Shown in pieces: positions 3,666 to 18,567 of a DNA stretch of 18,567 bases. Origin of the DNA: a virus. The stretch lies in IMG/VR virus record IMGVR_UViG_3300045988_088988. One strand, 5' to 3'. Positions within the stretch are counted from its first letter, which is position 1. Each line of letters opens with the position of its first letter. The notes beneath the pieces were generated by a model. That model was not told where the DNA came from, made no database searches, and saw nothing but the letters and a program-made list of their open reading frames with translations. The translations under genes and the position numbers were made by a program.

Positions 3666-5132
3666 ATGGCGGTACGTTTGGCGGCGGCTACCGACGGTAC
3701 GACACTACTGGACAACGAACTGGGGGCGATGGAACTCTCGGCGAATACGGTGACGCAACTGACTCAGCGCGATAGCAATACGCGCGTTTATTGCGCTCAT
3801 GGTTGGTCTGACATTGAACGGCTCGCAACCGACTTGTTTCGGACACTGCCTCACGCCACGTCGCCGCAATCCAATGGAATACGTGGCACGTTTGACACGC
3901 GCGGCCACTTTTACAATCTTGCTATACGCTGGGACAAAACCATTGTTGACTTTGCAGACGTGCGCAATATCACACGCGACAATGAGGTTGCCGAAAGCGC
4001 GACCGATTTTGGGGGAGACAGTGAGCTTGAAACCACGTGGAACATAGCCCAGTCACTACAGGCCCACAAACTGCAAGGCACGACCATAGGCGCGGTGGCA
4101 ATGAACAATTACATCGGCGGCGATTATCGTAGGTTTCGGGAAAAATTCCCGCCATTGGACGCGACGGATTACAAGCGTATGCGAGCTAGCTATTTTGGTG
4201 CATACTTACAGGCCAAAGCGGGCGAATATGCCGAGTGCTCAAGCTGGGACGTGAACTCATTATATCCGTATATCATGCGCAATATGCCGTTACCATATGG
4301 GGGTCCGGAATGGTATGACGGTAAATATGAGGCGGACAAAACCATGCCGCTACATATTGATATCATATCGTTTGCCGCCACGTTGAAAAAGGACAAATGC
4401 CCGACGCTGACAAACCTGTTGCCGTTATGGGGGTTCGAGCACGTTCGACTGCCGAGTACGTTTGGCGTGGTCACTATGCCGCTTACCGATGTAGACCAAC
4501 AGACGTTACGTGAAAACTATGACATTGATATATATGAGGTTCAAGGCGGTTGGAAATTCCGCAAAAGCCAAGGACACTTTCAAGCGTACGTTGATGAATG
4601 GTTTCACGTGAAACAATCCGAGACAGGAACTCGAAAACGTATCGCCAAGCTCATGCTTAACTCATTGGTAGGAAAGTTCGGCGCAAGCATCAACAGGCCC
4701 ATGATGGAACCCGTTTTAGATGAATCAACGCAAGAACTGCGGTTTGATGTGAAACCGGCTAACGCTTTGGCGTCGCTCGCATATGTGCCGGTGGCCGCGT
4801 ATGTTAACGCCTATGGACGGCAGATTTTAACACGTGCGATAAACCGGAACCAAGACAGGGTCATATATGCCGACACTGACAGTATGATAGTGACTGGATT
4901 GGACGTGCCGCATGGCATCGAGGCTAGCCAAGGCAAGCTGGGCGCATGGAAAAACGACTACCGATACAAGCGACTGCGAATATTGGGGCCGCGCAAGTAT
5001 TGCGGGGAGACTGTCGAGGGCGATACCGTCATGAGATTGTCTGGGGTCAAACGCCGTGACACGATACCGTATGACAGTTTCTTTGAGGGGAATAGGCTTA
5101 TGAATGACTATGGTCAGGAATTTGTGTTATAA
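3666..5132 (+). CDS. Protein-primed family-B DNA polymerase, 488 aa
   Basis: Motif A is WDVNSLYPY (aa 193-201), motif B KLMLNSLVGKFG (aa 328-339), motif C YADTDS (aa 401-406), and RKY (aa 443-445) is the KxY-region equivalent. A-to-B spacing (134 aa) and B-to-C spacing (75 aa) equal those I recall for phi29, leaving room for TPR1 and TPR2. Exo candidates are FYNLAIRWD (ExoII) and YIGGD (ExoIII). Confidence 0.92.
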   Translation: MAVRLAAATDGTTLLDNELGAMELSANTVTQLTQRDSNTRVYCAHGWSDIERLATDLFRTLPHATSPQSNGIRGTFDTRGHFYNLAIRWDKTIVDFADVRNITRDNEVAESATDFGGDSELETTWNIAQSLQAHKLQGTTIGAVAMNNYIGGDYRRFREKFPPLDATDYKRMRASYFGAYLQAKAGEYAECSSWDVNSLYPYIMRNMPLPYGGPEWYDGKYEADKTMPLHIDIISFAATLKKDKCPTLTNLLPLWGFEHVRLPSTFGVVTMPLTDVDQQTLRENYDIDIYEVQGGWKFRKSQGHFQAYVDEWFHVKQSETGTRKRIAKLMLNSLVGKFGASINRPMMEPVLDESTQELRFDVKPANALASLAYVPVAAYVNAYGRQILTRAINRNQDRVIYADTDSMIVTGLDVPHGIEASQGKLGAWKNDYRYKRLRILGPRKYCGETVEGDTVMRLSGVKRRDTIPYDSFFEGNRLMNDYGQEFVL

Positions 5133-5316
5133 TAGGAAATGTGCGGGGCATGCTCCTTGAATTGACACGCTAGCCCTCATGCGTGGCACGCGGTAAGGCG
5201 CGGCATGGGGATGTAAAATGGTATGCCATACCCTAGGTGCAGTAAGAGTCTCGGCATGGCCTACATCATCTGCATGGCCCCATTATTGGGGCCATGCCTT
5301 AAACGAAGGAAGTATC
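5133..5316 (+). promoter_or_regulatory. Structured early/late intergenic region; candidate late promoter and operators
   Basis: CGGCATGG occurs at 5201-5208 and 5252-5259. GCATGGCC occurs at 5254-5261 and 5272-5279, and inverted at 5290-5297. Palindromes are GCGTGgCACGC (5181-5191) and GGTATGcCATACC (5220-5232). TGTAAAAT (-10-like) is at 5212-5219. An 11-bp hairpin, 5272-5282 with 5287-5297 and loop TTAT, lies just before SD GAAGGAAG. Confidence 0.5.
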
Positions 5317-5685
5317 ATGGACAACGACAAAACCGACACCACCTCGGCCGACATCATGCCGCCCGGTACCGACAACAACGGCGACGGAGAAGACAGCCCG
5401 CCCGAGCAGAACCCGGAAACGCAGGACAACAATACCGACAAGGACGCCAATCCGGCCGAAGCCGACACCGATAGCGACATGAACGCACGCATTACAGCGC
5501 TGGAGTCGGCTATCACGGAAATCTCCCAGACTCTTGCGGAAATTCAAGCCGCAAACGCCAAGACGGTATTGGGTGGCAGTGACGAGTCCAACGACCTACC
5601 CGATGAAGCCGACGCGCTCACCGATGATGACGCCAACGGTACCTATCTTACTTTTGATGACCTCTACGAAAAGGATGAAGACTAA
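5317..5685 (+). CDS. Putative scaffolding protein, 122 aa
   Basis: GAAGGAAG lies 6 nt before ATG 5317. The protein is highly acidic and low-complexity, with a central helical segment (MNARITALESAITEISQTLAEIQAANA). It sits directly upstream of the capsid gene with a TAATG overlap, matching the position of phi29 gp7. Confidence 0.6.
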   Translation: MDNDKTDTTSADIMPPGTDNNGDGEDSPPEQNPETQDNNTDKDANPAEADTDSDMNARITALESAITEISQTLAEIQAANAKTVLGGSDESNDLPDEADALTDDDANGTYLTFDDLYEKDED

Positions 5686-7409: not shown

Positions 7410-7424
7410 TCTGCGATATAATAA

Positions 7425-7461
7425 AAGGGAGTGTCTCACGTGAAAACACTCCCTTATTTTT
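7425..7461 (+). terminator. Rho-independent terminator after the capsid gene
   Basis: AAGGGAGTGT (7425-7434) pairs with ACACTCCCTT (7446-7455) around an 11-nt loop, followed by ATTTTT. Confidence 0.8.
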
Positions 7462-9729
7462 ATGATGAAAGAGGTAGTTGTGTTGAGAGATATCAACCCT
7501 AACGTCGAGGCGACGTTTAACTGGGCTCAATGGACGCCCAACACGTCGTTAAAACTCTGTAACGTGCCGTGGGATAGCAGTTACCGTGACCTAGCACGGT
7601 TCGAGTCACCGCAGAAACAACAGGAATGGTTTGACCGACGGCCCGGCGTTGATAGGGTGCGTGGCGTCATGCATATGTTCGGACAGCCCGTGCGCGTCGA
7701 ACTGCCATTCAACGAGGCGTCCAACTACAACTATGTTGTGGTGTATAACGATTACCCCGATTTGGAGACGCCGCGATATTGGTATTATTTCATCAATCAC
7801 GTGGATTACATCAATGCATACACTACTCAGCTCACTGTGCAATTGGACGTTTGGCAGTCGTTCCAGCATGTACTTAGGTTTGGGTCATGCTATGTGGTGC
7901 GAGGCCATATCGGTATTGCCAACGAAAACCAGATGATGGATTATGGCCGCAGTTATCTCGCACTACCCGAGGGGCTGGACACCGGCAGTGAAATGGTGAC
8001 GGCAAACCAACAGTACAAGTCTCTTATCGGCATGGACGGGAAAAATCTGGATTACGGCGTAATTGTCGTGAGCACGGTAGATTTGTCAGCGGACGCGGGC
8101 AGTCAGGAAAAACCGTCTCTCACTACTGCTGGCGGTTCTTTGTTTGAGAACATGGCCAACGGTGCCGAGATACTGTATTTTAAGGACGTTCAATCTATCC
8201 GGGTGTTCATGGGGGTGGGGTCTTCTTTTTCGTGGATAACACAGGGTATTGTAAACATGTACATGATACCCTCTTTAGATGATGACTTTCTTAATCAATC
8301 CGGCTATGTTGTAGATAAGCTATTTGGGAAAACACTCCCCACGGAGTTAAATAATCGTATCTACCGTTTCCCCCAGCCAGCCACAAATGCGCCCAGTAGG
8401 TATGAAGACATTATTACCATTAATGATTTTCGTGATAATTTTAATATCCCTAAACGTTATAAAAACCTTAAAAAACTCGAATGCTACCCCTATTCCACTG
8501 TCGAATGCACTTGCTTGAACGGTACAAATATCACCTACAGACCCGAAAATATCCAAAGCGATAATCTGGTTATTAGAGAGGTGCATAACTACGCGCCCAA
8601 TGGCGCGCGCTTGAACTTTTACCCGGTTGGATACAATAAGGCGGGTGCAAGCGAGATTGCTCCACTTGGTGAAAACAATGGGTTGCCGATTGATAGCGGA
8701 GAAATGTTGGACGCCGCGTTTGGCATCAGCAATTTCCCTCAATTTGTGATAGTCAACAATGGTGCCCAGTTGGCAATGGCAAACAGTGCCTACACACGCG
8801 CTTATAATCAGCAGTCCGCCGACTGGACATATCAAAAAGCGCAGATGGGCGTCAGCCAATCGCTTGCGGCCACGGCCATGCAAAACCAGTACAATACCCA
8901 AGCCAACAAACTCGCTATCGGCAACCGTAACGCCAATAACGCGATACAGGCGACCTCGCTTAACACCGGGCTGGATAACACGACGTATATCAACAATCAG
9001 CGAGCCGACCTCGCACAGTTAAATAACGTGGTTAACGGCGTGGTCGGAGTGGTGGGTAACGCCGCTTCGGGCAACGTCGGGGGGGCAGTGTCCGCGCTGG
9101 GCGGCGCAGTCATGAATGGCGTCAACACCGAAGCGAACCGCAGTATCAACAATACCGCCGCCCAACTCTCCACAGCAAATTCTCTGAGCACTAACGCGGC
9201 CACGACAAGTCAGGCCAACACGTACGGCTCTCAGACTACAGCGCTTTCAAACCAGTTGGCCCAAAATATGGCGGACATGAACGCGGATTACGCGCAACGT
9301 TCCGCGTTCGGCGACTATCAGAACACTATCGCTGGGATTAATGCGCAAGTCCAGCAAATGCAGTTGACGCCCCCTACCACGTCCGGTGCTATCGGTGGGG
9401 ACGGGTTCAATCTCGCTAACGGTATTGTCGGGGTGTTGGTTCGATTCAAGACGTGCGCACCCTCAGCTCTGCGGAGCGTCGGAGAATACATGTTGCGCTA
9501 CGGGTACTTTGTCCAGCGTTTCATCACGCCGCCGCAATCGCTGGAATGTATGACCAAGTTCTCGTATTGGCAAATGCAAGAGTGTTACGTGCGGGGTGAT
9601 TTGCCCGAACAGTATCGGCAGACCATTAAAGGCGTGTTCGAATCTGGGACTACTATATGGACTAACCCTGATGATATCGGAGTGACCGACTGGGCGGATA
9701 ACGACCCATTGCCGGGCATCTCATTCTAG
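7462..9729 (+). CDS. Tail knob protein (phi29 gp9-like), 755 aa
   Basis: The N-terminal region (NVPWDSSYRDLARF ... YNYVVVYN ... RYWYYFINHVDYINAYTTQLTVQLDVWQSF ... CYVVRGH) parallels remembered phi29 gp9 (DVPFSNDYKNTRWF ... SYIMFQN ... [32 protein letters not shown] ... SFIVREH). The true start may be GTG 7480, 5 nt after AAAGAGG. Confidence 0.82.
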   Translation: MMKEVVVLRDINPNVEATFNWAQWTPNTSLKLCNVPWDSSYRDLARFESPQKQQEWFDRRPGVDRVRGVMHMFGQPVRVELPFNEASNYNYVVVYNDYPDLETPRYWYYFINHVDYINAYTTQLTVQLDVWQSFQHVLRFGSCYVVRGHIGIANENQMMDYGRSYLALPEGLDTGSEMVTANQQYKSLIGMDGKNLDYGVIVVSTVDLSADAGSQEKPSLTTAGGSLFENMANGAEILYFKDVQSIRVFMGVGSSFSWITQGIVNMYMIPSLDDDFLNQSGYVVDKLFGKTLPTELNNRIYRFPQPATNAPSRYEDIITINDFRDNFNIPKRYKNLKKLECYPYSTVECTCLNGTNITYRPENIQSDNLVIREVHNYAPNGARLNFYPVGYNKAGASEIAPLGENNGLPIDSGEMLDAAFGISNFPQFVIVNNGAQLAMANSAYTRAYNQQSADWTYQKAQMGVSQSLAATAMQNQYNTQANKLAIGNRNANNAIQATSLNTGLDNTTYINNQRADLAQLNNVVNGVVGVVGNAASGNVGGAVSALGGAVMNGVNTEANRSINNTAAQLSTANSLSTNAATTSQANTYGSQTTALSNQLAQNMADMNADYAQRSAFGDYQNTIAGINAQVQQMQLTPPTTSGAIGGDGFNLANGIVGVLVRFKTCAPSALRSVGEYMLRYGYFVQRFITPPQSLECMTKFSYWQMQECYVRGDLPEQYRQTIKGVFESGTTIWTNPDDIGVTDWADNDPLPGISF

Positions 9730-9738
9730 TGATATACT
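9729..9738 (+). promoter_or_regulatory. GTGATATACT extended -10 element (copy 2), 6 nt upstream of the portal ATG
   Basis: TATACT is at 9733-9738 and the ATG at 9745, so the predicted start coincides with the A of ATG (leaderless). TTGCCG (9709-9714) lies 18 nt upstream. Confidence 0.5.
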
Positions 9739-9744
9739 GGAGAC

Positions 9745-10707
9745 ATGTCTAGGTCGAGAAAAAATCAGAATCGTAGGGGCGGCGGCGTTCATCCCAGTGG
9801 CAATTATGCCAAAATGCGCGCCGTCGCCCTTGATGACATGTACTATCATCTTCTGCGCGAGCTCGCACTGAACCGGTTCAAATGGCATGGGCTACCCCCC
9901 ACCGTAGATGAACGTTGGATGGAGACGTGTCTGTTGGACTATAATCTCTGCTTGTTTTTCTACGACCGGCGTATCGGTTCGTTTTTGGCGACTCAGGCGG
10001 CTTATCAGGGACGCTTGAATCTCTACAATAACCCGACCGAGTTTTCGCCGGTTGGAGTTAACTATCATTACAAGGTTCTCTCGGCGGCCAATGAATGCGT
10101 GCCCATCTGGGATAATCGTATGAGATGGTCGTTCAATGACATCCTTTGGATGTACGCAAGGCGTTTAGCAGACATCGATAAGGCATATCAAGTCAACTTG
10201 GACGGGCTGAAACTGCCGACGTTCATTACTGCCGACCAACGTACCAAGCTCACGGTAGAAAACATTCTACAGCAACAGCAAGACGGGCAATCGTTTATCA
10301 TCGGCTATGATTCACTCGACCCATCCAGCATGTTCCAGCCATGGCCCAACACGACACCGTATCTGTTGGACAAATTCATTCAACAAAAAACACAGGTGAC
10401 TAATGAGGCATTGAGTTATCTGGGCGTTCAGTCCAGCGGGACGGAAAAACAGGAACGTTTGATAGGTGCAGAGGTTGCTCAGGCCAACGAAAAAACAGAC
10501 ATGTTCCGTCTCGCTTTCCTGACGGCGCGACAGGAAGGCGCACGACTGATTAACAGGATGTATAATCTAGACATATGGGTGGAATACGCGGACACGCAAA
10601 GTTCTGGTGTGCCGAACGCGATTGATAATACGCAATCCAGCGGCAACACCACTACGGCAGTTGACTCGACAGACCCCCTTGGAAACGGAATAGGCGGTGT
10701 GGCATGA
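9745..10707 (+). CDS. Portal / upper collar connector protein (phi29 gp10-like), 320 aa
   Basis: The basic N-terminus and LALNRFKWHGLPPTVDERWMETCL match remembered gp10 ([24 protein letters not shown]). TEKQERLIGAEV corresponds to LEKKERMVTDEV. The position after the tail knob gene is the same as in phi29. Confidence 0.88.
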   Translation: MSRSRKNQNRRGGGVHPSGNYAKMRAVALDDMYYHLLRELALNRFKWHGLPPTVDERWMETCLLDYNLCLFFYDRRIGSFLATQAAYQGRLNLYNNPTEFSPVGVNYHYKVLSAANECVPIWDNRMRWSFNDILWMYARRLADIDKAYQVNLDGLKLPTFITADQRTKLTVENILQQQQDGQSFIIGYDSLDPSSMFQPWPNTTPYLLDKFIQQKTQVTNEALSYLGVQSSGTEKQERLIGAEVAQANEKTDMFRLAFLTARQEGARLINRMYNLDIWVEYADTQSSGVPNAIDNTQSSGNTTTAVDSTDPLGNGIGGVA

Positions 10708-11498
10708 CACAAGACCTAAGCAAGTGGGGTACGCGCGTGCCCTCCGAGTATACGGCCACGCTCGGCGCTGTTATCGGCATGGGCTATAATACTGATGATA
10801 AACTGCATTTATCCGCTGATTATTACCCGATTTTTGACGAAGCCCATAGAGCTGAGTTGAATGATAAAATCTGCCAAAATTACATGTTGCGTGAAATCGG
10901 CCAAGAGACAGTGCAACAGTTTGTTTTTTACCTAGGCATGACATTAAGTCAGATTATGCCATATTTTAATGAGCGTTATCGGACGCTAGCGTTAAAATAC
11001 GACCCACTGAACACCGTGGAAATGACTAGCGAAAACACGTCCAACACGGTAGCCCAGTCCAGCGGCAAGACCAGCGCGTCTCAGGATAGTTCGACCAAAA
11101 GCACATCGGACGGCACTAGTTCAAGTAGCACCAAGTCCCAGTCATATGATTCTGAGGTTCCGGCAACAGGCGTGCAAGGTGATTTTGCTCGGTATGCGAC
11201 TCACGCCAATCAGGCGCAAGCGGATACGGACGGCAGTAGCCATAGCGCGCAAGATACCACGTCGCAATCGCATAGCACCTCCAGCACGGAATGGCAACAC
11301 GACGCGACAGACGGCAGTAGTTCATCCCACACGTCGGGCCGGTCTCAGTCTGCAATGAGCCTCATTACCGAATATCGCAATGCGATCATCAACGTGGATA
11401 TGGAGGTCATACACTCGCTCGAACCCTGTTTCATGCAAATCTGGGGGTCATATGATACTATTTTTAGTAACTGCTATAACTATGGAGAATGGGAGTAA
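10704..11498 (+). CDS. Lower collar protein (phi29 gp11-like), 264 aa
   Basis: ATGA overlap with the portal gene. The N-terminal block YYPIFDEAHRAELNDKICQNYMLREIGQETVQQF fits the lower-collar pattern I recall for phi29-like phages. The position is syntenic. The centre is Ser/Thr-rich. Confidence 0.65.
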   Translation: MTQDLSKWGTRVPSEYTATLGAVIGMGYNTDDKLHLSADYYPIFDEAHRAELNDKICQNYMLREIGQETVQQFVFYLGMTLSQIMPYFNERYRTLALKYDPLNTVEMTSENTSNTVAQSSGKTSASQDSSTKSTSDGTSSSSTKSQSYDSEVPATGVQGDFARYATHANQAQADTDGSSHSAQDTTSQSHSTSSTEWQHDATDGSSSSHTSGRSQSAMSLITEYRNAIINVDMEVIHSLEPCFMQIWGSYDTIFSNCYNYGEWE

Positions 11499-11500
11499 TC

Positions 11501-12136
11501 ATGGTTGCCATTAACGCGCCGATTCCACGGCAACGCCTGTTTGGCAGGGTGCCCACGTCCGTTCCTTTTACATATCGGGACGGATTGACCACATTACAGT
11601 TAATTGAATGCTTGCGCCATAATCTCGATACCCTTCAATGTGATTTGAGCAAACTGGAGGAGAGCACAACCGACCTTGCGGCGTCCGTGGACAAGGCTCT
11701 TGCGGATACCGTAACCCAGCTCAGCAGGAATATGGCCGAACTGCGTGCGGAACTGCTGGCCCTGATTCACGAGATGGAACAGCAGGGCGTAGCAACCTCC
11801 CCAGTGTACGGCACCACGCAACCGCTCTGTCAGGTGTTGGGCGGCATGTACGATAATTCGCGCAATCATGGACTATTCTGGGGTGACTACGATAACATGC
11901 AGTTGACCGCGCAGGAATACGATGGACTTACGCTTGGTGCGCGTGAGTACGACCTGAAAGCAACCGCCGTGGATAATTGCACACCCGGCGATTTTCCGGG
12001 CCGTACCCAATTCCCCTACGGAAAATCCATGCCCGAGAATCCGCCCGCCGACATGGCATACATCACGCAATCGGAGGCAGATGCACGCTATGTTGAACGC
12101 AATCCAACAGCCAACAATTTTGACAATAAGGAGTAA
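11501..12136 (+). CDS. Putative tail/appendage structural protein with coiled coil, 211 aa
   Basis: The start is moved to ATG 11501 (GGGAG 5 nt upstream, 2 nt after the previous stop). It has a heptad-like helical segment (LDTLQCDLSKLEESTTDLAASVDKALADTVTQLSRNMAELRAELLALIHEME). The function is assigned by position only. Confidence 0.4.
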   Translation: MVAINAPIPRQRLFGRVPTSVPFTYRDGLTTLQLIECLRHNLDTLQCDLSKLEESTTDLAASVDKALADTVTQLSRNMAELRAELLALIHEMEQQGVATSPVYGTTQPLCQVLGGMYDNSRNHGLFWGDYDNMQLTAQEYDGLTLGAREYDLKATAVDNCTPGDFPGRTQFPYGKSMPENPPADMAYITQSEADARYVERNPTANNFDNKE

Positions 12137-12139
12137 ACA

Positions 12140-12559
12140 ATGACCGCAACTAACCATACCAAAAACTATAATCTTTCTCAGTTTGTCGGCACCGACCGCC
12201 CCGCATGGCTCGTTGACTACAACGGCGACATGACGAAGATTGACGCGCAGCTCAAGCGGAACGCCGATGATATCGCGTCGGCCGCCGCAGGCGGGCTTAC
12301 GTCGGTGTCGCACACTGCCGACCTTACCGGCAACGGCACGTCCGGCTCTCCGCTGGGCGTCGCGGCCACCATCGCCAAGAAAACCGACATCCCGGACGTG
12401 AGCAGATTCGCCACCTCCTCCGCTCTCACCTCGGGACTTGCGGGCAAGGTCGATAAAACCGCCTCACAGCCCGGCACGCTCGGATTGACGGCGGCCGAAC
12501 TTGATTCGATGTTCAAGGACGCGAACGGCATTGTCCGCGTCGGTACCGTTGAAGCCTAG
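12140..12559 (+). CDS. Short fibre/appendage protein sharing the N-terminal anchor motif, 139 aa
   Basis: AAGGAG lies 6 nt upstream. The N-terminus HTKNYNLSQF..DRPAWL..DMTKIDAQL is paralogous to that of the next gene. Confidence 0.6.
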   Translation: MTATNHTKNYNLSQFVGTDRPAWLVDYNGDMTKIDAQLKRNADDIASAAAGGLTSVSHTADLTGNGTSGSPLGVAATIAKKTDIPDVSRFATSSALTSGLAGKVDKTASQPGTLGLTAAELDSMFKDANGIVRVGTVEA

Positions 12560-12575
12560 AAAAAGGAGAACAACA

Positions 12576-14051
12576 ATGTCCACCACACAGCATACCGGGC
12601 ACTACAATCTGCCGACGTTCGGCGACAACCCGAACGACCGCCCCTCATGGCGCGGCGATTTCACCGACGCAATGACGAAAATCGATAATCAGATGTACGC
12701 TAGCGCGACCAACATCACCACGGCAACGGCGGCGGCGAACAACGCGACCACGGCGGCGGGCAAGGCAACCGAGACGGCGAACGCCGCACAGTCCACAGCC
12801 GATGACGCCGTGGCCCGGTTGAACGCGCTCGGAGCAACCAGCAATACGGCGGCAGGCCAGCTTAAAACCAAAATCGACACCACGGCCACTGACCTGAATG
12901 CGGTGGAATCCGACATCAACGGCTTCAAAACCACCACCAATGGGGATATTTCCTCGTTGAAGAGCAAGAACGTGAAGATTGAGGGCGATTTAGCCACCAC
13001 TACCTCGTTGGCCCATACCAACGAAAACGGCATCAGGAGCATTGAAGCGAATTTGAGCGCGCTTCACGCTGATTCCCCTTCCAATGCAGGAACGCTATAT
13101 AACACCGTGCAGGACAGCTCTCGCATCATCAACGTTAACCAGCCGTTCATGACTCGCGGGTCGAACATCATTGTGACTTTTGGGGATTCCTACGCCACTG
13201 TCAAGAACACTGCAAACTGGGCATATAGACTCGCTCAAAAGCTGGGGTGGACGTTGCACAATTACGCAGTGGCCGGAGCTGGATACCTCACTCCGAACGC
13301 CACCTATATGAGCGAGTTCAACACAGCCAAGGCGGATACGTCCTATAATCATGATGATGTATCGTTGGTGGTTATCGGAGGTTCGCGCAATACTAACGAC
13401 GGATATTCGGGGAACTTGAAAACAGCCGCGCAAGAGCTTTTCCAGAAAGTAAGCGCCGAATATCCCAATGCGCGAATCATCGCGGTACCGTTGCTATGGG
13501 ATAAAACCCCGGTGTCGGCGTATTGGCGTTATAACGCCGCAAGCATTGCCGAGGCGGCGATACTGGCCGGAGTGGAATCCATACCGTGGGCGTGGACGTG
13601 GAACCTCGGGCGCGAAAACGCATTCAATGGTACGGACATCCACCCCAATGAAACCGGAGCCGGCATCATTGTAAACTACATTATGCGATATATGCTTGGA
13701 GTGTATAATGGCCGACATGAAGTGTTCGTGTGGCGACCCCAGTCAAACCCTGCGGAGTTCGTTCTTACCGTGGATGCAAGCGCGGGAACCATCTCGTATG
13801 GTCTGTCGGTGGCGGCAGGCGTCACGCCAGCGAACTATACGAACGTGAGCGGTCTGCCAATGTGGGCGTGGAATGCGTCGGATGGGACAAATCAGGGGCG
13901 GGCATGGGTGGCGGCCATCACCAATAACGCAAATGCCACAACACTGTTCAACATTGGCACTGACGGTCATTTTGGATGGCAGTCTTTCACCACCAACCCT
14001 GCGGGAACCCCTAACGGATTGGCTGGAGCGCAATTTACAAGAGCGTGGTAA
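12576..14051 (+). CDS. Tail appendage / receptor-binding protein with SGNH (GDSL) hydrolase domain, 491 aa
   Basis: AAAAGGAGAA lies 6 nt upstream of ATG 12576. An N-terminal anchor motif (HTGHYNLPTF..DRPSW..AMTKIDNQM) is followed by a T/A/N-rich helical stalk. SGNH blocks are FGDSY (GDS codons 13182-13190), GAGYL, GGSRNTND and DIHPNETG (D 13635, H 13641). Confidence 0.75.
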   Translation: MSTTQHTGHYNLPTFGDNPNDRPSWRGDFTDAMTKIDNQMYASATNITTATAAANNATTAAGKATETANAAQSTADDAVARLNALGATSNTAAGQLKTKIDTTATDLNAVESDINGFKTTTNGDISSLKSKNVKIEGDLATTTSLAHTNENGIRSIEANLSALHADSPSNAGTLYNTVQDSSRIINVNQPFMTRGSNIIVTFGDSYATVKNTANWAYRLAQKLGWTLHNYAVAGAGYLTPNATYMSEFNTAKADTSYNHDDVSLVVIGGSRNTNDGYSGNLKTAAQELFQKVSAEYPNARIIAVPLLWDKTPVSAYWRYNAASIAEAAILAGVESIPWAWTWNLGRENAFNGTDIHPNETGAGIIVNYIMRYMLGVYNGRHEVFVWRPQSNPAEFVLTVDASAGTISYGLSVAAGVTPANYTNVSGLPMWAWNASDGTNQGRAWVAAITNNANATTLFNIGTDGHFGWQSFTTNPAGTPNGLAGAQFTRAW

Positions 14052-14069
14052 CGCGATTGGTGTTAGCGA

Positions 14070-14096
14070 TACCCCACGGCCCCGCGTCGTGGGGTA
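14070..14096 (+). terminator. 9-bp hairpin after the fibre gene, overlapping a TATACT box
   Basis: TACCCCACG (14070-14078) pairs with CGTGGGGTA (14088-14096) around a 9-nt loop. There is no clear U tract, so its function is uncertain. Confidence 0.35.
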
Positions 14097-14106
14097 TACT
14101 GGTATC

Positions 14107-15321
14107 ATGCCGACATTGGATGAATGGTTCGCCCAGACCGAAAACCACTACTGGGACATGGACGGGTATTACGGTCCCCAATGCTGGGACTTGTGGGCAA
14201 AATATTGCATGGACGAGTACGGGTGTAGTGTTCAGGATTGCATCACCCCCACCGGTTGGGCCGGGGGGCTATACACGCATCATCCCGTAAGCGCAAGAGT
14301 CGGGGAGATTTTCGAGAAAAAAGATAACACATGGGAGCCTATGCCCGGCGACGTTGCCATATGGCAGGTCTGCTATCCCGATTATCCGTCAACGCACGTG
14401 GCCATTGTCGTAGATGGAATACAGGGCGATTATATCGACGTGATTACGCAAAACCCCGAGCCGAGCGTGCATAAACTACTCCCATTGCAAAAAGCGCATA
14501 TCGGATATTTGCACCCGCGCAAAAAGCCGGACGGCGGCGACAATGACAGCGGCTCGAACCCTACCGGCTCGAACAACCCGGGTAGCACATCCAGCAGTGA
14601 CGTATGGATACAACAACAAGGGGACAACCTCATTTATCATTACCGCGACAACGACAGTGGCGCGGGTACTATGATTTTCTACAAAGCCACGGCCCAAACA
14701 TGGACGGCCAAGGGCAGTGTTAAAGCGCCCAGTGACTCGGGCGGCCAAGCCACGCCTTCTACAGGCAACGGCAAAAGCAGTTACGCGCTCTACTGTATCG
14801 GCACGGTGGAAAGCTCATTACAATGGGACGCGGTAGAATTAGCCAACATGCAAGGCATCGGGATTGCGCAATGGTCGTTTGACAGGCGATTGGACGTTTT
14901 GAACGCAATGAAAACCGCCGACCCGACAGGCTATGAGACGTTTGCCAAAACATGCCCCGAGATAGCGGCACTCATGGGCAATGGCGGGACGTTTGCACGC
15001 CCCCTGACGTCTGCGGAATCGGCGGCGTTCAAAACATGGGCGCAACGTCCCGAGTCACATCAGGGGCAACGCAACCAGTTCGAGGCGGACTACAACGGCT
15101 ATCCCCGCGTGTATGATGATATCAAAATGCAGATACTATGGGCGTCGGCATATCATCAAGGCCCGGCATACGCTGAAGCGCTACCGAAAGCAACCACATT
15201 GGGCGGTTTATTGGATAACCTGCTTAATGACGGTGTTTTTGGGCAATACCCGAGCCGGTATCGGACTGTGTATAATCTGCTAGTTGTCTGGGACGGCGCT
15301 AGTGCCCCACCGAACTTTTAG
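14107..15321 (+). CDS. Tail-associated peptidoglycan hydrolase: N-terminal CHAP, C-terminal lytic-transglycosylase-like domain, 404 aa
   Basis: CHAP signature: YGPQCWDLW (Cys), PGDVAIW, STHVAIV (His), ITQN. After a Gly/Ser/Asn linker, SLT-like motifs follow: TVES, GIGIAQW and AYHQG. The position corresponds to phi29 gene 13. The start is at ATG 14107, with no SD; TATACT (14095-14100) lies 6 nt upstream. Confidence 0.72.
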   Translation: MPTLDEWFAQTENHYWDMDGYYGPQCWDLWAKYCMDEYGCSVQDCITPTGWAGGLYTHHPVSARVGEIFEKKDNTWEPMPGDVAIWQVCYPDYPSTHVAIVVDGIQGDYIDVITQNPEPSVHKLLPLQKAHIGYLHPRKKPDGGDNDSGSNPTGSNNPGSTSSSDVWIQQQGDNLIYHYRDNDSGAGTMIFYKATAQTWTAKGSVKAPSDSGGQATPSTGNGKSSYALYCIGTVESSLQWDAVELANMQGIGIAQWSFDRRLDVLNAMKTADPTGYETFAKTCPEIAALMGNGGTFARPLTSAESAAFKTWAQRPESHQGQRNQFEADYNGYPRVYDDIKMQILWASAYHQGPAYAEALPKATTLGGLLDNLLNDGVFGQYPSRYRTVYNLLVVWDGASAPPNF

Positions 15322-15350
15322 TTATCCACAGGATTATACACTTACCCACA
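15322..15350 (+). promoter_or_regulatory. Two direct DnaA-box-like 9-mers
   Basis: TTATCCACA (15322-15330) matches the classical DnaA-box consensus 9/9. TTACCCACA (15342-15350) matches 8/9. They lie 20 bp apart start to start, and the second ends 1 nt before GTGATATACT. Confidence 0.4.
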
Positions 15351-15351
15351 T

Positions 15352-15361
15352 GTGATATACT
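15352..15361 (+). promoter_or_regulatory. GTGATATACT extended -10 element (copy 3), 6 nt upstream of ATG 15368
   Basis: TATACT is at 15356-15361. The ORF-track ATG at 15362 abuts the hexamer, and the second in-frame ATG at 15368 sits at the predicted start (leaderless). Confidence 0.5.
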
Positions 15362-15367
15362 ATGGTT

Positions 15368-16474
15368 ATGGCTGATGGAATGACAATTCTTAATGAGAAT
15401 GATTATTATGATTACACGCGCGTGCTTTCATATCACGCGCCGTGGATATTCATTATCGGCGCACGCGGTCTCGGCAAAACCTACGGCGGCAAAAAACTCA
15501 TGATAGATGACTGGATGAAACGACGGTGGCAATTCATCTATCTGCGCCGTACCGCCGAGGAACAAAAAAACAAGGGAACTTTTTTCAACGATATCGCAGA
15601 CAGTTACCCCGAGTTGGACTTTAGAGTTAACGGCAATCAGGCGGAATGCCATTGGGCTGATGACAGAGACGCGACAACGGACAAAAACGGGAAAAAGAAA
15701 TCAGTATGGCATATCGTAGGCTATTTTATTGCACTCTCGCAAGCCGGACAAGTCAAATCGGTGGCGTATCCGCGTGTGCGCACCATACTGTTTGACGAGA
15801 TTTTCCCAGACAACATGCGCTATCTTGGAGGAGAGGTCACAGCGCTTGAAGAGTTTTACAACACGGTAGACAGGTGGCACGATAGAGTCAGGCTTATCAT
15901 GTGCTCGAACGCTGTGAGTTTGGCCAACCCGTATTTTGCGGCGTTCAATATCAACGTCACCCCGCAGATTGATAACAAGATTCAATACCAACGATACTGT
16001 GACTCTTTCATTGTGGTGGAGCTCGCTGATTATGGCGGTTTTTCCGCCAAAATCGCCAAAAGCAAGTTCGGCCAATTCCTTAGCAAGTTCGACGCAGATT
16101 ACGCCGCATACTCAATCGATAACACGTTTCGCGACAACAGCAACGCACTCATAAGCAACCTCAGCGGCGCGGGATACGTTTTATCAATAAAAACACGCGA
16201 ATATGGTTCGTTTGCCGTCTACCAAATCCTAGATGATAGCAAAATCGCGACGGTATGGCAGATAGCACGCCGTCAACCCAAAAAGCAAAAATGGTACACA
16301 CTGGACTATCGGCTAGTTGATGAAAAATGTATACTGTTAAAAAGGTCAGATGATATCATCAAAAAACTAATTGAGGCGTATCGCGTAGGCCGCGTCCGAT
16401 TCGAAACCCCCCAAACAAAATCAGAGTTTAGTATGCTGTTAGGAACGCTATTAAATTCCAGCAAAACAAGATAA
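15368..16474 (+). CDS. DNA encapsidation (packaging) ATPase, phi29 gp16-like
   Basis: VLSYHAPWIFIIGARGLGKTY (Walker A), QFIYLRR, TILFDEIF (Walker B) and MCSNAVSLANPYFAAFN match remembered gp16 blocks (MLSYDRILNFVIGARGIGKSY, QFIYVRR, TIVFDEF, CLSNAVSVVNPYFLFFN). The start may be 15362 or 15368. Confidence 0.92.
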   Translation: MADGMTILNENDYYDYTRVLSYHAPWIFIIGARGLGKTYGGKKLMIDDWMKRRWQFIYLRRTAEEQKNKGTFFNDIADSYPELDFRVNGNQAECHWADDRDATTDKNGKKKSVWHIVGYFIALSQAGQVKSVAYPRVRTILFDEIFPDNMRYLGGEVTALEEFYNTVDRWHDRVRLIMCSNAVSLANPYFAAFNINVTPQIDNKIQYQRYCDSFIVVELADYGGFSAKIAKSKFGQFLSKFDADYAAYSIDNTFRDNSNALISNLSGAGYVLSIKTREYGSFAVYQILDDSKIATVWQIARRQPKKQKWYTLDYRLVDEKCILLKRSDDIIKKLIEAYRVGRVRFETPQTKSEFSMLLGTLLNSSKTR

Positions 16475-16908: not shown

Positions 16909-16917
16909 GAAGTAATC

Positions 16918-17727
16918 ATGGATGATATCTCATGGGTAGGGTCTCCCAACCACTACAACGGGCGCAACGGCCACACCATAAGCCACATCACACTACATAT
17001 CATGGTCGGCACCCTAACTGGCACCGACAGCGTTTTTCAACGCGCCGGATACGCTTCGGCCCACTACGGCATCGGAGGCAACGGCGAGATACACCAGTAT
17101 GTGAGCGAGAGTGACGGCAGTTGGAGCGACGCGAACTATGCGAGCAACAACAGCACCGTAAGCATCGAGCATGAAGGCGGCATGGCCGGAGTGCCTTGCA
17201 CACGCGCCTGTATGGACGCTTCGGCCCGCCTGTGCGCCGATATCGCACGCCGTCAAGGCTGGGAACACCTGTGGCACGACGGACTCAACGGTAACATCTG
17301 GCTACATCGCGAGGTACCCGGAACCAATCACGCCGGGTGCCCCGACCTCGCGCCCAACGGACTTGACGTAAACTACGTCATCAACAAAGCAAACCAACTA
17401 CTCACACAAGGAGCAGATATGCCAGTCAAAACAGACCCCATCAACTGGTACGGCCAAAACGTCACCGTCGAATACGCATTACAAGACCTGACTCACCGAA
17501 TCGACGCCCTCGCCGCCCGCCTCGGCCCCATCTCGGAACAATACCAATTCGACTACCTGCCCGCCATTCTGAACAACATCGAAAGCACCTATCTCGCTGT
17601 TAACGGCCTCAAACCCGACAACGGGAAAGGACTAACCGACGAGCAGGTGGGCAAGCTAGCCGACAGCCTCAAAACCAGCCTCGGCCAGCAGGTAGCCGCA
17701 GAACTCGCCAAACGACTCAACGACTGA
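16918..17727 (+). CDS. Endolysin: N-acetylmuramoyl-L-alanine amidase (Amidase_2/PGRP type) with an uncharacterised C-terminal region, 269 aa
   Basis: AGGAAG lies 6 nt upstream. Amidase_2 motifs are ISHITLHIMVGT, AHYGIGGNGEIHQYV, NSTVSIEHEG and HREVPGTNHAGCPD. I see no recognisable cell-wall-binding repeats in aa ~165-269. Confidence 0.85.
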   Translation: MDDISWVGSPNHYNGRNGHTISHITLHIMVGTLTGTDSVFQRAGYASAHYGIGGNGEIHQYVSESDGSWSDANYASNNSTVSIEHEGGMAGVPCTRACMDASARLCADIARRQGWEHLWHDGLNGNIWLHREVPGTNHAGCPDLAPNGLDVNYVINKANQLLTQGADMPVKTDPINWYGQNVTVEYALQDLTHRIDALAARLGPISEQYQFDYLPAILNNIESTYLAVNGLKPDNGKGLTDEQVGKLADSLKTSLGQQVAAELAKRLND

Positions 17728-17847: not shown

Positions 17848-17881
17848 ATGCCCCCTACGTTATATGTAGGGGGCATTTTTT
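17848..17881. terminator. 11-bp perfect hairpin at the convergence point of rightward and leftward transcription
   Basis: ATGCCCCCTAC (17848-17858) pairs with GTAGGGGGCAT (17866-17876) around a 7-nt loop. A T run follows on the + strand. On the - strand the hairpin directly abuts the stop codon (17880-17882) of the leftward gene. Confidence 0.7.
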
Positions 17882-18387: not shown

Positions 18388-18567
18388 TATTGTTCCTTTC
18401 CTTGAACCTTGTAACTACAGTATAACACACAACACACAAACACACAACACACGGCGTGTCGAAAACAAAAACCAGAAACGAAGACGAAACGGAAAACTTG
18501 AAACGGGACAGAATGAAAGAGACAAGACGCATGGGAAATCTTAGCGCTCTGGGGCACCCCTCTGCTT
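18381..18567. repeat. Right inverted terminal repeat (ITR-R), 187 bp
   Basis: Perfect reverse complement of 1-187 and ends exactly at the last base of the window. Confidence 0.97.
18419..18447 (-). promoter_or_regulatory. Putative early promoter in ITR-R (identical copy, reads leftward)
   Basis: Mirror image of 121-149. It would drive the minus-strand genes 18387..18136 and 18077..17880. Confidence 0.5.

Follow-up and report, generated by a model that had tools for sequence, protein, structure and literature searches.

The window analysed here, the whole 18,567-nt stretch of IMG/VR virus record IMGVR_UViG_3300045988_088988, is a complete linear phi29-like phage genome (18,567 bp, 50.8% G+C) that carries perfect inverted terminal repeats (ITRs) of 187 bp at both ends. 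Our subject is a short sequence that recurs at its gene boundaries, the 10-mer GTGATATACT, and the three junctions at which its hexamer TATACT stands just ahead of the genes for the portal protein, the tail lysin and the packaging ATPase, where it may act as a promoter of mRNAs that begin with their start codon. Pfam matches identify a phi29-type single-stranded DNA-binding protein (SSB), a protein-primed type B DNA polymerase, the tail knob gp9, the connector gp10, a GDSL-esterase fibre, a CHAP plus tail-lysozyme protein, a gp16 packaging ATPase, a holin and an amidase; portal and ATPase align along their length with the solved phi29 proteins. The large genes lie on the + strand without exception.

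The 10-mer had been picked out in an initial annotation of the sequence, and the count given there is exact: GTGATATACT occurs three times, always on the + strand, on the SSB stop codon (2591-2600), on the tail-knob stop codon (9729-9738) and in the gap behind the lysin gene (15352-15361). The expectation of 0.018 copies per strand (18567/4^10) is right as well; the mean of shuffled sequences was 0.02, and 0 of 200 shuffles reached three. The arrangement TATACT-N6-ATG was found where it had been described, at portal, tail lysin and ATPase (9733, 14095 and 15356), against 0.14 expected and beyond every one of the 200 shuffles, none of which reached three. The ATGs so positioned, at 9745, 14107 and 15368, open reading frames that match Phage_connector, CHAP plus tail lysozyme, and Podovirus_Gp16 in Pfam, respectively. 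Relaxed to TGNTATAMT, the box is present seven times where 0.97 would be expected (0/200 shuffles reach seven), and all seven copies are oriented toward downstream genes.

Extended -10 promoters of Gram-positive bacteria carry TG one base 5′ of TAnnnT and can dispense with a -35 element. The same spacing of TG and TAnnnT is seen at 2592, 9730, 15353, 141, 5125 and, on the - strand, 18427; the TG is not present at 14095, which reads GGGGTATACT. There is no difference in sequence from the Gram-positive elements, and the overlap with stop codons, which saves space, is peculiar to this phage group. That an A+T-rich hexamer simply recurs near three starts by chance would agree with two further counts in the window: TATACT alone is not significantly enriched (9 versus 5.2 expected), nor is the generic TANNNT-N6-ATG (14 versus 9.2). 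Given the latter, the significance comes from the specific hexamer, from the fact that it coincides with real starts, and from its conservation. Against chance stand the 200 shuffles, none of which matched what was counted for the 10-mer, for TATACT-N6-ATG or for TGNTATAMT, and the retention of the arrangement in 67 to 81 related loci; these comparative data refute it, and we give it practically no credence.

For comparison, a portal-based scan of IMG/VR provided 80 related contigs, mostly near full length and with portal identities of 72-99%, so that with the window itself 81 portal loci were available; six cultured Bifidobacterium phages were also compared. The search for the motif in related phages, which the initial annotation had suggested as a check, returned the arrangement at 81/81 portal, 67/72 ATPase and 67/70 lysin loci.

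The portal junction is the most uniform of the three. The second copy of the 10-mer (9729-9738, + strand) abuts the tail-knob stop TAG (9727-9729), whose G is its first base, and an in-frame TGA follows next. The portal gene (9745-10707, + strand) has no usable Shine-Dalgarno (SD) sequence, and the A of its ATG, the seventh base past TATACT, is the predicted transcription start. All 81 loci, in 46 distinct sequences, read [stop]TGnTAnnnT-N6-ATG. Six forms of the hexamer occur (TATACT, TATGAT, TACAAT, TATGCT, TACACT and TATAAT), in which T1, A2, T6 and the 5′ TG are invariant, while hexamer positions 3-5, the sequence of the spacer (19 forms, always 6 nt) and the -35 region vary. A -35-like TTG is TTG or CTG in about half of the relatives each, tracking a synonymous change in the knob gene. 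Because TG, T1, A2 and T6 are fixed while positions 3-5, spacer and -35 vary, the conservation pattern is, on this alignment, that of a sigma-70-type extended -10 element and neither that of coding sequence nor that of an SD. The invariant hexamer positions 1, 2 and 6 coincide with those that matter most in promoters of Bifidobacterium breve (PMC5746004).

Coupling to the upstream stop codon was considered as a reason for the fixed portal spacing and is weakened by the same loci. Depending on the clade, the knob gene ends in TAG at 15 nt from the ATG or in TGA at 12 nt, whereas the distance from box to ATG is constant; coupling therefore does not explain the spacing. A GGAG ahead of the portal gene was ruled out as its SD, lying 2 nt from the ATG and being replaced by AGAGGC, GGTAGT, GACAGT or AACAAT in relatives. 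The portal open reading frame (ORF) is in the frame of the knob ORF, from which it is set apart by the tandem stops TAG TGA (9727-9732) and four sense codons (9727-9747). One clade has TAG TGC instead, and there a ribosome that passes the lone TAG would make a knob-portal fusion; the shared frame is probably a coincidence.

On ribosome binding, the initial annotation had held that the three genes have no properly spaced SD and that most other genes have strong ones of the AGGAG type. The first part stands, as the portal and ATPase SDs are indeed weak; the second is overstated, many of the others being GGCGG, GGGGG or GAGG. Duplex energies with the anti-SD sequence are -2.4 kcal/mol for portal, +0.6 for ATPase and -6.1 for lysin, most other genes falling between -4.4 and -8.1; the lysin value arises only from GUGGGG, the 3′ arm of the hairpin described below. 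At none of the three junctions is there an SD at a functional distance. The start codon at portal, ATPase and lysin junctions is ATG in all loci save one GTG (L067). For mycobacteria, an ATG or GTG at the 5′ end has been found to suffice for leaderless initiation and to be required for it; a start codon there is preceded either by a -10 box or by an SD and not by both, which separates two types of genes (Shell et al. 2015, PMC4633059). The ATG and single GTG starts seen here fit that rule.

At the ATPase junction, the third copy of the 10-mer (15352-15361, + strand) lies in the 40-nt gap past the lysin stop at 15321 and has no recognisable -35. The proposed start of the packaging ATPase, a gp16-type protein (15368-16474, + strand), is ATG 15368, as put forward in the initial annotation in place of ATG 15362. 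Comparison supports this choice: within the clade of the window, which retains TGATATACT-N6-ATG, 15368 is invariant, 15362 is GTG in four members, and the downstream candidate ATG 15380 was ruled out, being ACG or absent in several close relatives. Across the family, TGn[T/C]AnnnT-N6/7-ATG is found at 67 of 72 loci; the exceptions lack the TG or have GTG, apart from BD811P2, which is leadered. Conservation is concentrated on the key positions of the -10 element, likewise at the polymerase stop codon discussed below.

The other ATPase clades add a natural displacement of the whole unit. There, the extended -10 (TGnTAnnAT or TGcCATAAT) shares bases with the ATG aligned to 15368. Measured against the conserved NDYYDY core of the protein, it is shifted by about 9 nt in the downstream direction, and the preserved ATG, seven bases past the box, has moved along with it; the upstream ATG is lost (ATA) in two loci, and the downstream position is GTG in one. 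Because box and preserved ATG have shifted together relative to the NDYYDY core, we regard the box and a usable start codon as functionally coupled in all likelihood, the joint shift being hard to explain unless they are.

The lysin junction has a more elaborate architecture. Past the stop of the fibre/GDSL gene at 14051, a GC-rich RNA hairpin of 12 bp (AUACCCCACGGC/GUCGUGGGGUAU; 14069-14097, + strand; -20.5 kcal/mol) precedes a TATACT box without TG (14095-14100, + strand) that has GGGG before it and overlaps the 3′ arm, the last three bases of the hairpin being the first half of the hexamer. The tail lysin gene (CHAP plus tail lysozyme; 14107-15321, + strand) starts at the ATG 7 nt past TATACT; a longer in-frame ORF from 13873 was rejected as the gene start, as it overlaps the upstream gene and is unconserved. 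In 67 of 70 loci the junction reads GGGTAnnnT-N6/7-ATG, nearly always with TATACT as the box, and in relatives it is preceded by a hairpin of 12-13 bp (AUACCCC...GGGGUAU) with folding energies between -20 and -26 kcal/mol. The inner stem shows compensatory variants (ACGG/CCGU, GUCCGG/CCGGGC or CCGGAC, ACUC/GAGU, ACGA/UCGU), and its G.U pairs are valid only in + strand RNA; the opposite strand would mismatch. These compensatory changes and strand-specific G.U pairs indicate an RNA hairpin on the transcript that comes from the fibre gene. The junction thus looks like a terminator overlapping a promoter. The tail of the hairpin, ACUGGUAUC, has no U-run, and the terminator scan of the window did not flag it; it is a putative terminator or stabiliser of the 3′ end. 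In one locus (L012), the hairpin is followed by TGtTATCAT and a 21-nt leader with AGGAG, so that terminator and promoter are combined as in the other loci, here with a leader.

The element of about 45 nt at the lysin junction is nearly invariant across L002-L081, while the upstream genes (fibre/esterase) and the N-termini of the lysins are mosaic, and the region 14069-14100 may also be a boundary of recombination modules. Such a conserved element between mosaic genes is what one would expect if the repeated box were bound by a phage regulator, or were a conserved linker at which modules recombine, its proximity to ATGs being incidental; the identity of three 10-mers, which is more than a loose promoter consensus requires, points the same way. 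Elsewhere, by contrast, only TG, T1, A2 and T6 are fixed and six hexamers are tolerated, which fits recognition by a sigma factor, all seven TGNTATAMT boxes face downstream genes, and the boxes at other positions precede terminated RNAs or SD-led genes. We consider a regulatory or recombination site quite improbable as an account of the box.

We therefore favour, with a probability of roughly 0.7, the reading that the GTGATATACT boxes are sigma-70/sigma-A extended -10 promoters that give rise to leaderless portal, lysin and ATPase mRNAs. Promoter activity, the exact start base and leaderless translation are deduced here from features that can be read directly, namely the sequence itself, its conservation, the identities of the genes and the relatedness to Bifidobacterium phages. 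In the mechanism we envisage, the sigma-A (sigma-70-type) holoenzyme of the host would recognise the extended -10 boxes (TGnTAnnnT), with no need for a -35. Being set on or past preceding stop codons, the boxes would split the genome into about eight transcription units. Initiation at the seventh (or eighth) base past the box would fall on the A of the ATG of portal, tail lysin and packaging ATPase, and the resulting 5′-AUG mRNAs, without leader or SD, would be translated by direct binding of 70S ribosomes as in Actinobacteria. At the lysin gene, the promoter would overlap the 3′ arm of the hairpin that ends the upstream fibre transcript. The internal promoters and leaderless mRNAs proposed in the initial annotation are in this respect supported by comparison, with N6 between box and ATG at the portal and N6 or N7 at ATPase and lysin.

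Several observations weigh against this reading, beyond the lack of enrichment of the generic TANNNT-N6-ATG. The knob-portal junction has no hairpin or terminator, so that a read-through polycistronic RNA will carry portal too and some SD-independent initiation is needed. The lysin box lacks the TG, and its TAT lies inside the conserved hairpin, which may itself explain the conservation. In many relatives the spacing is N7 instead of N6. The cultured phages BD811P1, BD811P2 and BP1 have leadered portal and ATPase genes, with a box, a 5′ hairpin, an SD and a start codon. Finally, the base at -1 is a pyrimidine in 57/57 distinct spacers (all C or T), and we dropped this as evidence for the start site, as SD-led control genes mostly have C or T there too.

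Much of this would suit an alternative in which the boxes are real promoters and the proteins come mainly from read-through transcripts, via termination-reinitiation or SD-independent internal initiation, the leaderless transcripts being minor or starting 1-2 nt off the A. The absence of a terminator between knob and portal, where the stop is merely 12-15 nt from the ATG, the lysin-junction hairpins without U-run, the N7 spacing and the cultured relatives that manage with leadered versions all speak for it. At ATPase and lysin, however, upstream stops are 41-56 nt away, beyond the range of coupling, which rules out stop-start coupling as the source of the spacing there. Furthermore, box-to-ATG is fixed where stop-to-ATG varies, the preserved ATG moves with the box among ATPase clades, and internal initiation gives no reason for a conserved spacing. 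We hence judge predominant read-through to be unlikely, although a good deal less so than a regulatory or recombination site. Some read-through RNA must nevertheless exist, at least across the knob-portal junction.

The promoter reading of the boxes extends to the ends of the genome. The ITR box TGTTATACT described in the initial annotation is found in both ITR copies. In the left ITR (141-149, + strand), with TTGTGT 17 nt upstream, it is the predicted early promoter of a leadered gene at 181 (SD aaggaaagga); the equivalent box at the left end of BD811P2 is TGgTATGAT. The right copy (18419-18427, - strand) is the predicted promoter of the two small leftward genes at the right end (18387-17880), which a strong hairpin terminator (17848-17876) separates from the rightward late genes. 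A GT-rich repeat of GTGTGTT units lies directly 5′ of the ITR promoter (107-144, mirrored at 18424-18461), inside the 187-bp ITR. Another box, TGGTATAAT (758-766), is situated inside the early ORF 569-805, 26 nt 5′ of the SD-led gene 799, and may be an internal early promoter.

The first copy of the 10-mer (2591-2600, + strand) is an extended -10 whose TGA (2592-2594) is the SSB stop codon and which has TTGGAC 18 nt upstream. A -10 box past the SSB stop is present in all clades and in BD811P1, BD811P2, BP1 and BadAztec1. From copy 1 we predict a short structured transcript or leader of about 70 nt (2607-2675, + strand), with two hairpins round a linker: a hairpin at 2608-2625, the linker UGCCGCC at 2628-2634, and a terminator hairpin at 2641-2672 with UUU behind it. 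Downstream lies the gene of the terminal protein (ATG 2697, with SD). Between two clades the hairpins are unrelated in sequence, such that MAFFT/RNAalifold across clades could not align them, and the linker UGCCGCC(A) is invariant; BadAztec1 has TATAAT-aggtag-UGCCGCU at the post-SSB position. The SSB ribosome-binding site GGCGGCA (2130-2136) was considered as a target of UGCCGCC and dropped, as it is unconserved in the other clade.

Similar boxes mark the next two junctions. The extended -10 box TGTTATAAT (5125-5133, + strand) contains the stop codon TAA of the DNA polymerase (5130-5132), and in 71/71 loci TG-c/t-TATAAT or TATGAT encloses the stop codon of the polymerase gene, be it TAA or TGA. 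Stop codons inside boxes are seen family-wide, TGA as TG-n (2592-2594) and TAA within TATAAT (5130-5132). Past the capsid stop, TATAAT (7417-7422, + strand), with GTGACA 16 nt upstream, is followed by a hairpin/terminator (7425-7455), so that the whole element spans 7417-7455; in the family, the capsid stop is associated with GTGATATAAT, TAGTGATACAAT or TATAAT, with the hairpin immediately next. The palindrome TTTCACGTGAAA provides the capsid terminator with its loop and inner stem. It recurs at 4596-4619 and 7428-7451, and many relatives (e.g., L014, L042) have it just ahead of their lysin-junction hairpin; it may be an operator or simply a favoured hairpin core. The tail-knob gene is leadered, probably starting at GTG 7480 behind the SD aagagg. 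An ATG at 7462 would have made it an apparent fourth SD-less gene, and was rejected as the start, for relatives begin at an ATG aligned with GTG 7480, behind aaaggga.

In the cultured phages BD811P1, BD811P2, BP1 and BadAztec1, the boxes at SSB, polymerase and capsid junctions are all present. At the lysin gene of BP1, a cultured phage of Bifidobacterium pseudocatenulatum, TATAAT-N6-ATG is present as well. The portal and ATPase junctions of BadAztec1 are tightly packed and have no box. Where cultured relatives have the order promoter-hairpin-SD at portal and ATPase, it is found at 9270-9330 and 14945-15065 in L001, at 10820-10882 and 16395-16510 in L088, and at 9200-9265 in L089; their ATPase 5′ hairpin carries a U-run, in contrast with the leaderless design in the family of the window. 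From these comparisons, the leaderless spacing is apparently a specialisation of the clade of the window, and the three identical 10-mers are, as we read them, instances of a promoter consensus TGATATAMT. The boxes elsewhere are predicted to drive leadered genes and two structured non-coding RNAs.

The second of these RNAs occupies the gap between polymerase and scaffold genes (5140-5297, + strand), with a core of about 125 nt (~5140-5266) and then a hairpin (5272-5297). An ORF at 5218-5685 is mis-started: its first ~33 codons overlap the RNA, and the protein is conserved only from residue ~31. The start of this scaffold-like gene is most likely ATG 5317, with the SD gaaggaag, which leaves 5134-5316 non-coding. 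Past the box at 5125-5133, the two ends of the RNA pair in a closing helix, inside which a three-way junction carries two arms; the terminal hairpin 5272-5297 completes the fold. Across 50 distinct sequences the consensus has 45 pairs, 24 of them with compensatory changes, and 99.2% of cells are paired, compared to 33-43% in slid controls. In relatives, the RNA maps to 4732-4900 in L001, 4662-4830 in L089, 6272-6442 in L088, 1931-2100 in L091, 5786-5956 in L087 and 5679-5849 in L092.

Cultured phages have an RNA of similar size with a terminator at the same position (BD811P1, BD811P2, BD811P3, BP1, BadAztec1 and BadAargau2). In BD811P2 the equivalent unit is self-contained, with a box, a core of ~135 nt and a U-run terminator, beyond which the scaffold gene has a further box and an SD of its own; this type of RNA is common to BD811P1, BP1 and a faecal contig, and BadAztec1 and BadAargau2 have a structured RNA of ~170 nt. 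A covariance model of the window family (R1) found nothing in BD811P1, BD811P2 or BP1 beyond the terminator and gave a weak, co-located match in BadAztec1 (12 bits, E 0.04); homology of the two RNA families is thus not shown by sequence.

The fold resembles the prohead RNA (pRNA) of phi29, for which strand order and loop pairing have been described (PMC5066667). The order A-C-(CE loop)-E-C′-D-A′, with helix A formed from the 5′ and 3′ ends and a three-way junction, is present, and the topology is pRNA-like both in the window family and in the family of BD811P1, BD811P2, BP1 and MT836241. Shared with the phi29 pRNA are size, end pairing, three-way junction and two arms, the first with an internal loop on its 5′ side and an apical hairpin, the second a plain hairpin; the phage also has a gp16-type ATPase. 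The internal loop of arm 1 is complementary to the hairpin loop of arm 2. The loop complementarity is invariant in the window family (UGGCA/UGCCA or GGC/GCC, 3-6 bp); in the second family it is ACCA/UGGU, GCCA/UGGU or GCCA/UGGC, with one covarying pair among 4 sequences. Unlike in phi29, the RNA gene is located between polymerase and scaffold genes and not at the genome end, and the two loops may pair within one molecule, as a pseudoknot. With the Rfam covariance model of pRNA, the whole window gave no match at E<=1; an Rfam search of the whole window returned no relevant match, and a tRNA search found none. So far, pRNA is known only from Bacillus phages (PMC11476376), and we found no paper linking pRNA with Bifidobacterium phages. 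That 5140-5266 is a pRNA-like packaging RNA, expressed from a promoter of the extended -10 class, is thus a tentative proposal, a lead rather than a finding.

Overall, the window departs from the transcriptional plan of phi29, in which one promoter, A3, activated by p4, makes a transcript that holds all late genes, next to the weak internal promoters B1 and B2 (PMC11476376). The late order of scaffold, capsid, knob, portal, collar, appendage, lysin and ATPase is the same, and host RNA polymerase would be used in both. In contrast to phi29, in which early genes are transcribed divergently, the window is nearly unidirectional from the left ITR and has several strong-looking internal boxes at stop codons, in part followed by hairpins and in three cases directly by an ATG. 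A single late operon of the phi29 type is not what we find in the window, which has at least five internal boxes, hairpin terminators within the late block and large genes that are all on the + strand.

As to the host, the initial annotation had taken the leaderless arrangement as a hint at Actinobacteria, and this is borne out by the closest cultured phages and by relatives of the endolysin. Nucleotide similarity to a cultured phage is confined to one gene; the phage is Bifidobacterium phage BD811P2, whose genome is syntenic. The closest cultured phages by portal protein are all Bifidobacterium phages (43-44% identity), followed by Curtobacterium and Arthrobacter phages, and in an alignment-based genome scan the catalytic domain of the endolysin was 63-77% identical to proteins from four Bifidobacterium genomes. 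The host is therefore probably a Bifidobacterium. The catalytic half of the amidase endolysin (16917-17403) is the sole stretch with ~80% nucleotide identity to BD811P2, the remaining genome being far more diverged, which suggests a recent exchange of the lysis module among Bifidobacterium phages. Of the start sites mapped in Bifidobacterium pseudolongum, 15% are leaderless (Ettwiller et al. 2016, PMC4782308).

The proposed design has precedents. Leaderless mRNAs from ordinary -10 boxes are already well known in Actinobacteria and some phages. Lambda cI, transcribed from PRM, and P2 gene V are single regulatory genes in Escherichia coli, where leaderless translation is weak. Both are cited as leaderless phage mRNAs in PMC4633059, and they share with the window a phage transcript beginning at AUG; here, three structural, lysis or packaging genes would be concerned, in an inferred host group where leaderless translation is probably efficient. 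Actinobacterial leaderless genes (PMC4633059, PMC4782308) show the same ordinary -10, the same ordinary distance to ATG or GTG and the same lack of an SD. They differ in that the window is a phage with internal junctions fused to the preceding stop, and in that its starts are inferred where theirs are mapped.

The proposed leaderless mRNAs thus overturn no current knowledge, and the pRNA-like RNA could matter more: if it is what it resembles, pRNA is not confined to Bacillus phages and would be an ancestral part of the gp16-type motor. For this abundant gut-phage family, the junctions fix the start codons of portal (9745), lysin (14107 and not 13873) and ATPase (15368 and not 15362), which gene callers that rely on SDs will misplace. 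The arrangement also fits, and helps to predict, an actinobacterial (Bifidobacterium) host of uncultured contigs, and the 20-nt junctions, each of which joins promoter and start codon in a small cassette, may be functional in bifidobacteria. The comparison also indicates that a phi29-like genome can probably run without a single regulated late operon, using instead host-type promoters welded to stop codons, with three late genes that would be leaderless.

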